A stretch of DNA of 64,000 nucleotides from contig JALHPE010000001.1 of the NCBI GenBank assembly GCA_022842645.1, positions 135,711 to 199,710 of the forward strand, given 5' to 3'. Every line of letters begins with the position of its first letter. Positions within the stretch are counted from its first letter, which is position 1. A program made the position numbers and the translations under genes. The notes beneath the pieces are model-generated. The model saw only the letters and a program-made list of their open reading frames with translations. It did not search any database and was not told the origin of the DNA. This document shows positions 5,515-9,912 of this stretch, piece by piece. This DNA is from Minisyncoccota bacterium. GTDB taxonomy: Bacteria > Patescibacteriota > Minisyncoccia > Phycocordibacterales > UBA2100.

Positions 5515-6432
5515 TCATTGATGCAAGTAGCGGCGTACTGCAAGGAAGCTGGAAAGTGCCCCCAAAAGCACCCCAGTGCCCACAATAGTGAAGAAGAGGA
5601 ATGGGAAATTCTCCACATAGTAGTCAAAAACGTTAAAGGAACCGAAGAATGCCTGGGATGGGGGTCCGAGCCAAATCGCGACCGGATACAGTGTGAGCAT
5701 GACCACAACGCCCGAAATGAGTCCATAGAGAATACCTGCGACAACGAAGGGACCCCGGACATACCAGTGCGCCGCACCCACAAGGTTCATGACCCCTATT
5801 TCATCGCGCGAGGTATAGATGGCCAAGCGGATAGTGTTGAATGCAATCAGGACCGAAGCACCTGCAAGAAAGAGCGCTGCCACGATACTAACCTTCCGCG
5901 AGGTCTCAATAATGCTTGAAAGACGGTCGATCGCGGTTTTGTTTTGGTAAAAGTTTACTTTACTGATTACACCAGTTTCGGCACCACGCACATCAAGAAA
6001 CTCGGCGATTGCTGCGTACTGCGAGGTGTCTTTAGCGCGAATGGCGAGCGAGGCACCGAGAGGATTCCCTGCAAGCTGGTCGAGTGCCTGTATCGTTGTC
6101 TGCTCATTTGCATGACGTTCGCGGAATTCGGCAAGCGCTTGTTCGCGCGAGGTATATTCCACTCCCGCCACTTCCGGAAGGCGCTCCAGGTCGGCTTTAA
6201 TGGCTAACGCTTGTTCCTCGCTTGCTTCGGTCGTAAAATAAACATTCACATCCACCTTCCCCACAAGCTCTTGAAGTGTTGCTTGCAGTGCCGCTCCAGA
6301 GATCATGAGTACCGCGATCACGAAAAGCGTGATCATCATGATAAAAATTGCAGCGAGCGATACGAAGCCATTGCGAATGAAACCGATGAGGCCATAGCGC
6401 GCAACACGTTTTGTGGTAAGCCAGAAGGACAT
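5515..6432 (-). CDS. ftsX: cell division ABC transporter permease FtsX
   Basis: 305 aa. N-terminal TM, large periplasmic domain, three C-terminal TMs. Sits immediately downstream of ftsE. Confidence 0.88.
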   Translation of the reverse strand: MSFWLTTKRVARYGLIGFIRNGFVSLAAIFIMMITLFVIAVLMISGAALQATLQELVGKVDVNVYFTTEASEEQALAIKADLERLPEVAGVEYTSREQALAEFRERHANEQTTIQALDQLAGNPLGASLAIRAKDTSQYAAIAEFLDVRGAETGVISKVNFYQNKTAIDRLSSIIETSRKVSIVAALFLAGASVLIAFNTIRLAIYTSRDEIGVMNLVGAAHWYVRGPFVVAGILYGLISGVVVMLTLYPVAIWLGPPSQAFFGSFNVFDYYVENFPFLFFTIVGTGVLLGALSSFLAVRRYLHQ

Positions 6433-6437
6433 AGTTC

Positions 6438-6534
6438 AGTTTGTAGTTTGTAGTTTGTAGTTTGTAGTTTTTTGCATAGCTCGTGTTTGTATTTTTATTT
6501 TACTACAGTCTACACACTACAAACTACAGTCTAG
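6438..6534. repeat. intergenic inverted heptamer-repeat hairpin: (AGTTTGT)x4 at 6438-6471 facing CTACAGT/CTACACA/CTACAAA/CTACAGT at 6502-6534
   Basis: Direct reading: four tandem 7-mers and their imperfect reverse-complement partner separated by a ~30-nt AT-rich loop. Lies exactly between the ftsE stop and the ftsX start. Confidence 0.6.
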
Positions 6535-7211
6535 AGAATATACTTCCCTTCTTTATCGTCCCGAATAACCCGACCCTGCTCAAGCGTGATCACACGCCTC
6601 CCGACCGAATCTACCACTAGCTTATTATGAGTCGTGAGAAGCACCGTCGTACCAAGGCTGTTTACCTTTTTGAGGATTTCCACGACATCATGCGTATTCA
6701 CCGGATCAAGATTCCCTGTTGGCTCGTCGGCTATGAGTACGTCTGGCTGATTCACAATCGCACGTGCAATTGCCACACGTTGCTGCTCTCCACCCGAAAG
6801 CTCCTTCGGAAAATTCCACATTTTTTCTGAAAGCCCGACAAGGTCAAGTACATGGGGCACATCCGCTTGAATATCCTCATCGGGCTTGCCTGCCACTTCC
6901 ATTGCAAACGCGATGTTCTCATACACGGTTTTTGTAGGAAGGAGTCGGAAATCCTGAAAAATCGTGCCTATGTTCCTGCGAAGCCCCAGGAGTTCTTTCT
7001 CGGAAAGGTCTCCTATCTCGCGGGAGCCAAAAAAAACGCTGCCCTCAGTTGGGAAGATTTCAGCAAAAAGCATCTTGAGGAGTGTGGTTTTCCCCGCACC
7101 CGAGTGTCCGACGATAGAAACAAACTCTCCCGGATCAATCGAGAGTGTGACGTCTTCAACAGCGGGCAATCCGCCGTTGTACTTCTTGGTCACGCGGTCA
7201 AAATAGATCAT
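6531..7211 (-). CDS. ftsE: cell division ATP-binding protein FtsE
   Basis: 226 aa. Walker A GHSGAGKTT, ABC signature LSGGEQQR, Walker B LIADEPTGNLD. FtsE-type N-terminus MIYFDRVTKKY. Confidence 0.92.
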   Translation of the reverse strand: MIYFDRVTKKYNGGLPAVEDVTLSIDPGEFVSIVGHSGAGKTTLLKMLFAEIFPTEGSVFFGSREIGDLSEKELLGLRRNIGTIFQDFRLLPTKTVYENIAFAMEVAGKPDEDIQADVPHVLDLVGLSEKMWNFPKELSGGEQQRVAIARAIVNQPDVLIADEPTGNLDPVNTHDVVEILKKVNSLGTTVLLTTHNKLVVDSVGRRVITLEQGRVIRDDKEGKYIL

Positions 7212-7549: not shown

Positions 7550-7605
7550 ACTTCCTCTCTTTCCCGGCATACGTGCCGTTCTTTTATCAGAATACACCTT
7601 TGTTG

Positions 7606-8487
7606 CTAAAGTGCCAGATCTTCTTCTGCATCAATGAATGATTGAATATCCCCCGCTAAGACTTTTTCAATATCCCTGCGCTCATGCTCCGTGCGATGAT
7701 CTTTCACGAGCTGGTACGGATGAAGGACGTAGGAGCGGATCTGGCTTCCCCATTCAATCTTCGTCGAGGCACCAGTTGAAAGCCCGCGTGCGGCACGCTC
7801 CTCTTCCTCTTTCTTGAGTGCGAAAAGTTTACTGCGAATAAGTTCGAGCCCTTTTGCTTTATTTTGTGCTTGCGCGCGCTCGCTCGTCACGTGTACGGAA
7901 ACACCCGTTGCTTTGTGCACGATGCGGACTGCAGTTTCTCGTTTGTTCACATTCTGTCCACCAGGACCCCCGGCATTCTGAAATGTAATCTCAAGCTCTC
8001 CCTCAGGCACGGCAAATGCGCTCTCGGCAATTTTCGGAAGCACCTCCAGAAGCGAAAAACTTGTTTGACGCTTACCTTGTGAATTAAACGGCGACATACG
8101 TACCAAGCGATGCACGCCCGCCTCACGCTTGAGCGCTCCGTAGACTCCCACACCACTCACCTCAAACGAGATACTTCGAAAACCGCCCATTGAATTCCTG
8201 TTCTCATCATTCACGACAACCCGCCACCCGCGCCCAGCGGCATATTTCGAATACATTTCAAAGAGCATGCGAGAAAAATCTTCGGCATCGTCCCCTCCCG
8301 CGCCCGAAATGATTGAAAGTAATGCATCGCCCTTTTCAATCGAACCTGCCCCTGCAAGCGCAGCCTTCAAATCCTGATACTCTTTCAGAGCCGCCTGTGC
8401 CTTATCTTTATCGCTCCAGAAATCCGCCGCCGCCATTGCGGCTTCGATCTCGGCAATGCGGGTTTCTATTCCCTCTTTTGATTGCAT
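7606..8487 (-). CDS. prfB: peptide chain release factor 2, single uninterrupted ORF
   Basis: SPF tripeptide (RMSPFNSQGKRQTSF) and GGQ motif (GGPGGQNVNK). Start set to the MQSKEG Met because the longer ORF would overlap the adjacent tRNA. No in-frame stop or frameshift site. Confidence 0.85.
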   Translation of the reverse strand: MQSKEGIETRIAEIEAAMAAADFWSDKDKAQAALKEYQDLKAALAGAGSIEKGDALLSIISGAGGDDAEDFSRMLFEMYSKYAAGRGWRVVVNDENRNSMGGFRSISFEVSGVGVYGALKREAGVHRLVRMSPFNSQGKRQTSFSLLEVLPKIAESAFAVPEGELEITFQNAGGPGGQNVNKRETAVRIVHKATGVSVHVTSERAQAQNKAKGLELIRSKLFALKKEEEERAARGLSTGASTKIEWGSQIRSYVLHPYQLVKDHRTEHERRDIEKVLAGDIQSFIDAEEDLAL

Positions 8488-8490
8488 ATA

Positions 8491-8566
8491 TGGAGCCGCC
8501 TCCCGGGATTGAACCGGGCACCTACCCATTACGAATGGGTCGCTCTACCAACTGAGCTAAGGCGGC
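8491..8566 (-). tRNA. tRNA-Thr(CGU)
   Basis: Minus strand: GCCGCCU-UA-GCUC-AGUUGGU-AGAGC-G-ACCCA-UUCGUAA-UGGGU-AGGUG-CCCGG-UUCAAUC-CCGGG-AGGCGGC-U-CCA. Anticodon CGU. Encoded CCA. Confidence 0.85.
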
Positions 8567-8580
8567 TTACATCGCCGATA

Positions 8581-8892
8581 TTATAGTATTTCAACCAAAA
8601 ATGCATCTATAGCAGGCTCATCATATGGATGCACCAAACGAATTGCCGCTACAACTTTTTCTATCAGTGCAGGTTCGCAGACAAATTCAATTCTTTCCTC
8701 TTCAACTTCCTCTAATGCGCCTATCTCTCCAATCGCCGGATGCGCCCCGTTCTCGGGTTTAAAGCGTCCGGTACCAACGGAACTAAAGGAACAAAAAGAA
8801 TAGTTCCCAATTTTACCGCCGCCCGCATTCCCGATTGCCTCTCGCACGGTATTTGCATGGGTTCGCGGCACAGTCACACATACTTTCATCAT
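8581..8892 (-). CDS. stand-alone PII-like domain protein homologous to the insert domain of Nif3/YqfO (GTP cyclohydrolase 1 type 2 homologue)
   Basis: ~100 aa. VREAIGNAGGGKIGNYSFCSFSSVGTGRFKPENGAHPAIGEIG...HPYDEPAIDAFLV closely parallels the remembered YqfO/Nif3 insert-domain sequence (GNYSHCSF...GTGTF...HPYEEPAYD). Confidence 0.5.
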   Translation of the reverse strand: MMKVCVTVPRTHANTVREAIGNAGGGKIGNYSFCSFSSVGTGRFKPENGAHPAIGEIGALEEVEEERIEFVCEPALIEKVVAAIRLVHPYDEPAIDAFLVEIL

Positions 8893-8897
8893 TTTCA

Positions 8898-9156
8898 TGG
8901 AGCCGACGACCGGGATTGAACCGGTGACCTCGTCCTTCGCTTACACCTCCCCTTTAAATATACGGGAGGGCTAGACTGTATATTCGACCACGAGGGTCGC
9001 CCTTGTCAGTCGTTCGGGCTCGAAATGATTTCGCGCCACGGTCTTGGCTCTTCTAAGCTATTAACCGTTATTCGGGATTCATGTGCACTTTGCAACACAC
9101 ATGGGCGGGGACTGCGTCCCACCAAGGACGTGCTCTACCAACTGAGCTACGTCGGC
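8898..9156 (-). tRNA. tRNA-Thr(GGU) interrupted in the anticodon loop by a ~183-nt group-I-like intron (5' exon 9121-9156, 3' exon 8898-8937)
   Basis: 5' exon GCCGACG-UA-GCUC-AGUUGGU-AGAGC-A-CGUCC-UUGGU. 3' exon AA-GGACG-AGGUC-ACCGG-UUCAAUC-CCGGU-CGUCGGC-U-CCA. Joined, they give a perfect cloverleaf with anticodon loop UUGGUAA. The 5' exon ends in U and the intervening sequence ends in G. Confidence 0.7.
8938..9120 (-). ncRNA. compact group-I-like intron within tRNA-Thr(GGU)
   Basis: GCCAAG inside the intron can pair with exon end CUUGGU, giving a U.G pair at the splice site. R/S-like core elements GAACGACUGACAAGG and AAUAUACAGUCUAGCC with P7-like pairing GACUG/CAGUC. Terminal G. Several internal hairpins. 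Confidence 0.5.
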
Positions 9157-9189
9157 TTTCTATCGAACATCGATAGAAAACCCACAATA

Positions 9190-9912
9190 TCACGCGATTT
9201 CGTAGTCCCAAAGTTCTTTAATGATAGATTCTGCGGCTGTGTCGTTTATGTCGCGACCCACTAATCCTGTCTGGTCTAAAAGCTGTTTCTCTAACTGTAA
9301 GGATAACTCCCGATGTTTCTCAACTTCGTTAAACCACGTCAGTGTATCTGCATGTGGCGCATATCGAACACGCGCTTCTGCAATACGCTCTTCCACGGAA
9401 AGTATCGAGAGCGGGCCAACGCGCGTATCTGCATATTGTATGATTTGAGCTTCGCGAGATCCTTCTGATAAAATCTTTTCGAGACGCCCGGAACCAATCT
9501 GCATGAACATCGTATAGACTCGATCCAGATGCAGTTCCTGTAGAATCGCAGATGTGGCCGTGTACTCATCGAACCCGTAGAGCGCGCGTATGTTATTTCG
9601 CACCGTAATCCAATGATCCACTTCTTGTTCTGTGTAAAACCCGTATGAGTCTCCCTCAAAATCAAACTTTACAATCGCACCAATGTCGTGAAGGAGGCAC
9701 GTACTTACCACAAGATCGGTATCAACCGCTTCCTTCTGCGCCTCGGCAACCATTCTTCCCACTGCAGCAACGCGTACCTGATGCAACTGAAGCCACGGTG
9801 GCACTTGGTATTTCTCGTAAATATCTTTGACGCGCATCCCGAGAACGATATCACACTGTACACAGTCCTCTACACACCCCAGCCTCGTGGGCTCTATACT
9901 GCTCATATGCAT
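9190..9912 (-). CDS. HD-domain phosphohydrolase (start taken at internal Met MHMSS; the longer ORF to 10134 is probably not real)
   Basis: LLHDIG HD motif plus downstream D residue. Longer ORF overlaps the convergent/divergent neighbour. Confidence 0.55.
   Translation of the reverse strand: MHMSSIEPTRLGCVEDCVQCDIVLGMRVKDIYEKYQVPPWLQLHQVRVAAVGRMVAEAQKEAVDTDLVVSTCLLHDIGAIVKFDFEGDSYGFYTEQEVDHWITVRNNIRALYGFDEYTATSAILQELHLDRVYTMFMQIGSGRLEKILSEGSREAQIIQYADTRVGPLSILSVEERIAEARVRYAPHADTLTWFNEVEKHRELSLQLEKQLLDQTGLVGRDINDTAAESIIKELWDYEIA

Follow-up and report, generated by a model that had tools for sequence, protein, structure and literature searches.

A split tRNA-Thr(GGU) gene in a Patescibacteria genome very probably carries a compact member of the divergent group I intron family

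Introduction

Group I introns have been described in tRNA genes of Patescibacteria. Nakagawa et al. (2026, mSystems; PMC13011429) reported introns in tRNA-Thr(GGU), inserted between anticodon position 36 and position 37 (36/37), in three of 95 complete Patescibacteria genomes (their Table 1), and they attribute the term "divergent group I introns" to Castelle et al. (2018, Nat Rev Microbiol). Here, we analyzed a 64,000-nucleotide (nt) stretch of DNA from a Minisyncoccota bacterium (contig JALHPE010000001.1, positions 135,711 to 199,710; called the window below), in which a tRNA-Thr(GGU) gene is split in its anticodon loop by a 183-nt insert. We are highly confident that this insert is a compact group I intron without an open reading frame (ORF), that it lies at 36/37 of tRNA-Thr(GGU) in a bacterium of the Patescibacteria, and that it is a member of the described divergent family. 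The observation is that of an already known intron family in a known tRNA, and a preliminary description of the locus had called it correctly. The same description had considered a tRNA-Thr group I intron unusual for this lineage, which the published list of such introns in Patescibacteria contradicts. Outside PMC13011429, our literature search for tRNA-Thr group I introns found nothing relevant.

The Rfam model RF00028, the seed of which contains no bacterial intron (Williams 2020, bioRxiv 10.1101/2020.01.27.920355), misses the published Thr introns. Nakagawa et al. blamed this on sequence divergence, and they found that ARAGORN calls two of the three as tRNA-Arg(GCG) with an insertion at 34/35. 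According to the same authors, the tFind model gpI_bact_tRNA (Williams 2020) finds the Thr introns. In their Table S2, tRNAscan-SE gives two Thr genes in the three Thr-intron genomes and three in most others.

The IC3 introns of Azoarcus tRNA-Ile(CAU) and Agrobacterium tRNA-Arg(CCU) (Reinhold-Hurek and Shub 1992) occupy the same 36/37 site as the window intron, are likewise compact and ORF-less, and share its plan for P1, in which an anticodon triplet ending in U pairs with a 3-nt guide. The window intron differs from them in its core (J6/7-P7 is CGAACGACUG), and its family is shorter, at 169 to 214 nt. The Azoarcus intron is about 205 nt long and, like the family studied here, has a GNRA loop on P2 with a receptor in P8. 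In the published phylogeny, the Thr introns group with IA and not with IC (PMC13011429). The tRNA-Asn and tRNA-Asp 35/36 introns of Patescibacteria, which are IA introns that self-splice in vitro (PMC13011429), come from the same phylum and the same kind of host gene as the Thr introns and are likewise missed or miscalled by standard tools. They differ in their insertion point, in having a core that RF00028 detects, in their R/S elements (GUUCAGAGACUAGGA and GAUAUAGUCC), and in that some carry homing endonuclease genes.

Results

The split gene and all of its parts lie on the minus strand, and the window coordinate of intron position i is 9121-i. The 5' exon occupies 36 nt at 9121-9156 (GCCGACGUAGCUCAGUUGGUAGAGCACGUCCUUGGU, read from 9156 to 9121) and contains the 5' strand of the acceptor stem, the D arm, C27-C31, U32, U33, and the anticodon G34 G35 U36 (9123-9121), which comes last in its final letters, CGUCCUUGGU. 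The 3' exon occupies 40 nt at 8898-8937 (AAGGACGAGGUCACCGGUUCAAUCCCGGUCGUCGGCUCCA, read from 8937 to 8898). It begins with AAGGACG and contains A37, A38, the 3' strand of the anticodon stem, the variable loop, the T arm, and the 3' strand of the acceptor stem, followed by the discriminator U (8901) and an encoded CCA (8898-8900). Between position 36 of the anticodon and position 37 lies the 183-nt insert (8938-9120), which starts with GGGACG and ends with AAGCG. When the exons were joined, they gave a perfect 76-nt cloverleaf with the anticodon loop UUGGUAA, which ARAGORN identified as tRNA-Thr(GGU). The two halves thus lie 183 nt apart with the split in the anticodon loop, exactly where the preliminary description had placed them.

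The unspliced gene received no call from ARAGORN at default settings and none from the Rfam tRNA model. ARAGORN -i called it tRNA-Arg(GCG) with a 183-nt intron at 34/35, a boundary two bases 5' of 36/37. The RF00028 miss and the Arg(GCG) 34/35 miscall published for the family were therefore both reproduced on the window copy. We rejected the 34/35 boundary because it leaves no U ahead of the splice site; among the homologues described below it also gives GCG or GUG, but with 36/37 the anticodon is GGU in every one. The predicted fold of the pre-tRNA was better than those of shuffled sequences (z = -4.33; 0 of 200 shuffles as good). We found no second tRNA-Thr(GGU) in the 64-kb window; the preliminary description had named an intact second copy as a reason to suspect a pseudogene here. 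A tRNA-Thr(CGU) gene lies at 8491-8566, about 330 nt downstream of the split gene. The locus was also found in the Logan assemblies of SRR28154519 and SRR28154518. The split tRNA-Thr(GGU) gene is probably functional and probably the only GGU isoacceptor, which fits the two tRNAscan-SE Thr genes in each of the three published intron genomes.

To find homologues, one genome per GTDB species was scanned for the 5' half of tRNA-Thr(GGU) with a base other than A at position 37. This gave 108 loci, 75 of which (73 distinct sequences) have a matching 3' half 169 to 214 nt downstream and an insert that ends in G. The median intron length among these 75 species representatives is 191 nt. Judged by record titles, which are the taxon labels used here, nearly all of the 75 are Patescibacteria (Paceibacteria/Parcubacteria; Kaiser-, Nomura-, Taylor-, Vogel-, and Moranbacteria; and "Saccharibacteria" assemblies); the exceptions are one Bdellovibrionales and several titled plain "bacterium." Among the homologous loci that were fetched, prfB adjoins the tRNA in 71 and ftsE in 50. 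The order tRNA-prfB-ftsE is common to these loci and the window, whose RF2 shares about 70% identity, and whose FtsE shares about 83%, with those of the closest homologous loci. The titles of the homologues and these identities indirectly place the host of the window intron in the Patescibacteria, near Kaiserbacteria/Paceibacteria.

A second scan, independent of the host gene, compared the intron core GCYCGAACGACUGACAAGGG with metagenome contigs and returned at least 120 loci. Among the matches listed, all 100 whose contig includes both exons are tRNA-Thr(GGU) genes interrupted at 36/37. We found that 85 of these 100 have A32, which the pattern of the first scan left out, so that the 75 species are an underestimate. 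Species representatives and metagenome contigs together, the same phosphodiester is occupied in at least 175 sequences. The published record consists of three cases in 95 complete genomes, compared with 75 species representatives and more than 100 metagenome contigs here.

Some loci depart from the common size. In L032 (4268-4606) and in two loci from metagenomes, whose inserts measure about 360 nt, an extra 80 to 170 nt lies in the P9 region, and the intron totals 266 to 367 nt. Only 13 to 29 nt separate the tRNA-Thr halves in L025 (titled "uncultured archaeon"), L093, and L103; the short gap in L025 may be an archaeal-type short intron.

We aligned the 75 sequences with MAFFT without fitting them to any structure, and the group I model was then laid on this alignment and its pairs were counted. 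The alignment has long invariant blocks with variable hairpins between them. We found that 90.2% of the cells in the pairs of the model are paired, compared with 75.4% in shuffles, and that both partners change in 38 of the 61 pairs. For covariation, the score was 0.383, compared with 0.131 for shuffled alignments (0 of 500 reached 0.383) and at most 0.101 when the partners were slid by 1 to 3 columns. Changes on both sides were found in the anticodon stem (5 of 5 pairs), P2 (8 of 9), P5 (4 of 4), P6 (6 of 8), P8 (5 of 5), P9.0 (2 of 2), and P9 (5 of 6). Within the tRNA set, P1 (GGU:GCC), P3 (CCC:GGG), P4, and P7 are invariant apart from changes that stay compatible with pairing. The anticodon stem covaries across the intron: it is 100% paired, with A31-U39 in 47 sequences and C31-G39 in 26. 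RNAalifold, with no structure supplied, recovered the anticodon stem, P1, P2, P4, P5, P6, P7, P8, and P9.

At the level of sequence comparison, these data taken together show the helix order P1-P2-P3-P4-P5-P6-P7-P3'-P8-P7'-P9.0-P9 with a P3/P7 pseudoknot, which is that of a group I intron. They also show that the U-1·G pair and the terminal guanosine of the intron (omega-G) are conserved and that P9.0 covaries, with a tRNA that is intact and selected. The earlier call of a compact group-I-like intron is therefore borne out by the homologues, the covariation, and the core fold. Three of its details also hold in all 75 homologues, in which the U at the exon end, the G at the intron end, and the P7 pairing GACUG/CAGUC with its R-like and S-like stretches are invariant.

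P1 (9104-9123) pairs G34 G35 U36 (9123-9121) with the guide G15 C16 C17 (9106-9104), so that the 5' exon ends in the U of the splice-site wobble, U36·G15. GGU and GCC, and with them U36 and G15, are invariant (75 of 75). Intron nucleotides 1-14 (9120-9107) make up the upper helix and loop of P1, in which nucleotides 1-3 pair with 12-14. RNAalifold prolongs P1 past the splice site, and the two pairs beside the wobble covary (GU in 43, UA in 25, and GC in 7; GC in 42 and AU in 31). The P2 hairpin (intron 19-40, 9081-9102) is capped by a GCAA tetraloop of the GNRA type.

The type of this loop, L2, tracks the type of the P8 hairpin (intron 122-136, 8985-8999). A GAAA L2 goes with a CUAAR...UAUG P8 in 25 to 27 sequences, and such a P8 resembles the 11-nt GAAA receptor, a motif described in PMC2275092. 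A GYRA L2, which is GCAA in the window, goes with a plain P8 helix in at least 36 sequences. No case of a GYRA L2 with a receptor-type P8 was found in the tRNA intron set.

The 5' strand of P3 (C45-C47, 9074-9076) is followed by an A-rich J3/4, GAAUA (9073-9069). Its 3' strand (G119-G121, 9002-9000) follows J7/3, ACAA (9006-9003), and the two together span 9000-9006. P3 is 3 bp long (45-47 with 119-121) and invariant except in one homologue, in which a C-to-U change still allows U·G; we assigned its pairing solely from group I topology. P4 (53-58 with 78-83), J4/5 (AAUA), the P5 hairpin (63-74), and J5/4 (CAA) span 9038-9068, and the one change in P4 within the tRNA set is from U·G to C-G. The P6 hairpin (intron 84-104, 9017-9037) directly abuts the 3' strand of P4. 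J6/7, CGA (9016-9014), comes before the 5' strand of P7 (9007-9013), which consists of A108, a bulged C109, and G110-G114. J8/7, AAUAUA (8984-8979), and the 3' strand of P7 (C143-U148, 8978-8973) together span 8973-8984 and are invariant or nearly so.

We found that the five inner pairs of P7 (108-114 with 143-148) are invariant. G110-C147 is the predicted guanosine-binding pair, and its geometry, with the bulged C109 and the outer pair A108-U148, fits such a site; we take this arrangement to be like that of G264-C311 and A263 in Tetrahymena. The core from P3 to P8 thus follows the canonical order, with the pseudoknot and with A-rich J3/4, J4/5, and J8/7, and with P3 placed by topology. P9.0 pairs G150 C151 (8971-8970) with G181 C182 (8940-8939) and encloses P9 (intron 152-175, 8969-8946). 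Both of its pairs change on both sides (GC in 56 and AU in 14; CG in 36 and UA in 35), and it would position the terminal omega-G183 (8938), which is invariant. The whole stretch from P9.0 to the end of the intron is 8938-8971.

The 20-nt core used in the second scan was also found in IMG/VR viral contigs (21 loci) and some metagenome contigs, all in non-tRNA settings. A looser pattern for the P3-P4 region gave further relatives, some with altered P7 sequences. The relatives are L231-L260 on IMG/VR viral contigs and L115, L153, L162, L179, L187, L198, L199, L200, and L223 on metagenome contigs. R1, a covariance model for which the 75 tRNA introns were the sole input, matched the viral-contig relatives at 62 to 141 bits, at nearly full length except for a few fragmentary matches; in the window, it gave exactly one match, at 198.9 bits. 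With the viral relatives added, pair 53:83 of P4 is AU in 15 and UA in 18, and pairs 57:79 and 58:78 of P4 vary compatibly. In the relatives, pair 84:104 of P6 is GC in 6 and AU in 28, and the outer P7 pair, 108:148, is AU in 28 and GC in 4, next to a bulge of C or A. By eye, P1 covaries among the relatives, with guide GCC accompanying exon GGU and guide GUC accompanying exon GAU.

Three copies (6270-6476, 6743-6936, and 7559-7755) interrupt a single gene in L244, which is the contig of L115; this gene comes after a coiled-coil ORF. We found reciprocal alleles in L244 and L253. L253 has an intron at 2281-2473 where L244 is uninterrupted (about 7798), and L244 has an intron at 7569-7752 where L253 is uninterrupted. 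Excision from just after the exon GGU through the final G of the intron gives back the protein of the partner, ...AFEG/IRFHSAYGYV... and ...ENALG/AKVQYVDIKH... (the slash marks the junction). These reciprocal intron-less sites indicate that the elements are true introns whose boundaries are as predicted and whose sites differ between homologous genes, and they confirm the splice-site rule of the family. A generic test of reading-frame restoration over the viral relatives was ambiguous because of several in-frame 3' sites, and only the L244 and L253 sites were decisive.

An 85-amino-acid (aa) Cys-rich ORF (L252:261-518, minus strand) lies inside P8 of the intron L252:514-735. Its Pfam matches were zinc-finger matches only, all below threshold, and L255 (about 9619-9818) has a similar small Cys-rich ORF at the same position in P8. 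The L252 ORF may be a small homing endonuclease. On eight loci that carry relatives of the viral type, RF00028 gave no match at an E value of up to 1. The interrupted viral gene had no PHROG, Pfam, or GenBank-phage (tblastn) match, the intron had no blastn match among GenBank phages, and a literature search on group I introns in IMG/VR capsid genes and on a viral link found nothing relevant.

The neighbors of the split tRNA gene are the genes for an HD-domain protein and an unnamed 105-aa protein, prfB, and ftsE. The 105-aa ORF (8581-8898, minus strand) lies downstream, and the first base of its ATG (8898) is the last A of the tRNA CCA. It had no Pfam match and is present in only 3 related loci; prfB and ftsE, further downstream, are widely kept beside the intron-containing tRNA. 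On the other side, a perfect 10-bp inverted repeat (TTTCTATCGA-TGT-TCGATAGAAA) lies at 9157-9179. It starts 10 nt past the stop codon of the HD-domain gene that lies upstream, reaches precisely to the first tRNA base, and has no T-run after it. A search of Rfam with this repeat gave only a spurious microRNA-like match. The repeat could be a processing or regulatory hairpin.

Discussion

We propose that splicing of this pre-tRNA would begin with base pairing between the anticodon GGU and the guide GCC (intron 15-17), with U36·G15 marking the 5' splice site. The anticodon stem would keep the two exons together in place of a long P10. In an Anabaena pre-tRNA, the anticodon stem reportedly takes the place of a long P10 as well, in work of Zaug and colleagues from 1993. 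Free guanosine bound at G110-C147 of P7 would attack the bond that follows U36. With the 2-bp P9.0 positioning it, G183 would then take the site of the guanosine, and ligation of the exons would give a normal 76-nt tRNA with the loop UUGGUAA. Docking of the GNRA loop L2 on P8 may help to hold this small fold. We infer the steps of guanosine attack, exchange with G183, and ligation from established group I introns.

Some of our results and of the published record weigh against this reading. RF00028 gave no match, either at its gathering score on the whole window or at an E value of up to 10 on the 351-nt stretch 8850-9200. The splicing assays of Nakagawa et al. cover the Asn and Asp 35/36 introns, with the Thr type not among them, and the Thr introns fall within the IA group in their tree, on a long branch (PMC13011429). 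By eye, we saw no P7.1/P7.2 (nor P5abc), and the L2-P8 contact looks IC3-like, in contrast to the published IA placement; the subgroup may be either IA or IC3. The invariance of P1, P3, P4, and P7 in the tRNA set makes the alignment uninformative on pairing there, and the 75 sequences are related, so that the counts of covarying cells exceed the number of independent events. P3 is also short, and C16-C18 as an alternative partner of G119-G121 is inseparable from C45-C47 by covariation, both being invariant. We rejected this alternative P3, in which the guide sequence would be lost and P2 would come to lie between P3 and P4.

We do not count the silence of RF00028 against a group I intron, because it is a published blind spot for the same family. 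The preliminary description had proposed that silence of Infernal and a tRNA scanner would refute the intron. RF00028, the Rfam tRNA model, and default ARAGORN are all silent here, yet this rule would wrongly reject a real intron. The window intron shares with the published Thr introns its host tRNA, anticodon, insertion point, phylum, RF00028 blindness, and ARAGORN miscall. We found no difference from them, and its identity as a member of that family is drawn from these shared properties and not from a direct alignment.

We consider it unlikely that the insert has a group I fold without being autocatalytic and needs a protein cofactor or chaperone, or that it is spliced conditionally and regulates the supply of tRNA-Thr. 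Such a dependence would suit a P3 and an exon part of P1 of just 3 bp each and a family whose 169 to 214 nt are below the typical size of tRNA group I introns. We found no splicing assay of the Thr type in the accessible literature, and regulatory roles are speculated on in PMC13011429. Against dependence on a protein, a ribozyme that folds by itself requires features such as the conserved tertiary contacts (L2-P8 and P9.0) and the bulged P7 seen here, and no candidate cofactor gene is linked, the neighbors being those named above. Self-splicing with a 3-bp exon-guide pairing is a property of the Azoarcus intron. A tRNA gene broken by an inserted element, dead and unused, would account for the lack of a call by default tRNA finders; we regard this as very improbable. 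The exons are perfect, the anticodon stem covaries across the insert, and the insert is at the same phosphodiester in all of the homologues counted above. In addition, the window has no other Thr(GGU) gene, and complete intron genomes have one Thr gene fewer by tRNAscan-SE.

A different architecture of the intron was put forward in the preliminary description, which made P1 from exon CUUGGU and GCCAAG (intron 73-78, 9048-9043) with a 72-nt L1 loop. Six pairs, including a terminal U·G, can indeed be drawn in the window sequence alone, but we are nearly certain that this P1 is wrong. GCCAAG is not conserved, being mostly GGACAAG or GGGUAAG among the homologues, and could not pair there with the invariant exon. 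Its bases form the 3' strand of P5, J5/4, and the 3' strand of P4, in helices that covary or are invariant, and a P1 with GCCAAG would leave no P2 or P3 in the canonical order. The preliminary description is thus partly supported: it was right in its main call and wrong about P1 and about rarity. Without a dedicated motif search, we attach next to no probability to an archaeal/eukaryal bulge-helix-bulge intron removed by a protein endonuclease and a ligase. The location in the anticodon loop agrees with such an intron, but the site is 36/37 and not the canonical 37/38, and the insert has a conserved, ribozyme-like pseudoknotted core with U-1 and omega-G. Splicing of bulge-helix-bulge introns is also not known in bacteria (PMC13011429).

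We suggest only tentatively, and from sequence, that the tRNA-Thr intron is a fixed, ORF-less cellular branch of a wider compact family that RF00028 does not see and that remains mobile in uncultivated phages, which may infect Patescibacteria; there, in genes of the structural region, it would insert after G-R-U triplets. In the same suggestion, which we hold to be possible but rather doubtful, members of 169 to 190 nt would rank with the smallest self-splicing group I ribozymes found in nature. Homology, as seen with R1, and the intron-plus and intron-minus alleles are the observations here that underlie it. We found no literature source that says which known group I intron is the smallest. 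Phages carry mobile group I introns in protein-coding genes such as T4 td and Twort orf142. Like phage mobile introns, the relatives found here sit in protein-coding genes, with up to three per gene and at varied sites, and two have a small zinc-finger ORF in P8. Unlike them, the copy in the window interrupts a cellular tRNA gene, lacks an ORF, and belongs to a set with one fixed site across many species. This fixed single site looks like vertical inheritance and not like active homing.

For annotation, these results mean that the genome has a tRNA-Thr(GGU), which default finders miss and which intron-aware ARAGORN mislabels as tRNA-Arg(GCG). Such miscalls distort estimates of the tRNA complement and of completeness for Patescibacteria genomes. 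The comparative structure with its corrected P1, the breadth of the family, the sizes down to 169 nt, and the viral-contig homologues may go past published work. The secondary structure of this family, which is invisible to RF00028, is well supported by the alignment of 75 species, and that alignment could seed a proper covariance model. Members as short as 169 nt make the family a candidate for a minimal natural group I ribozyme, and the homologues in viral contigs hint at the origin of the tRNA intron.

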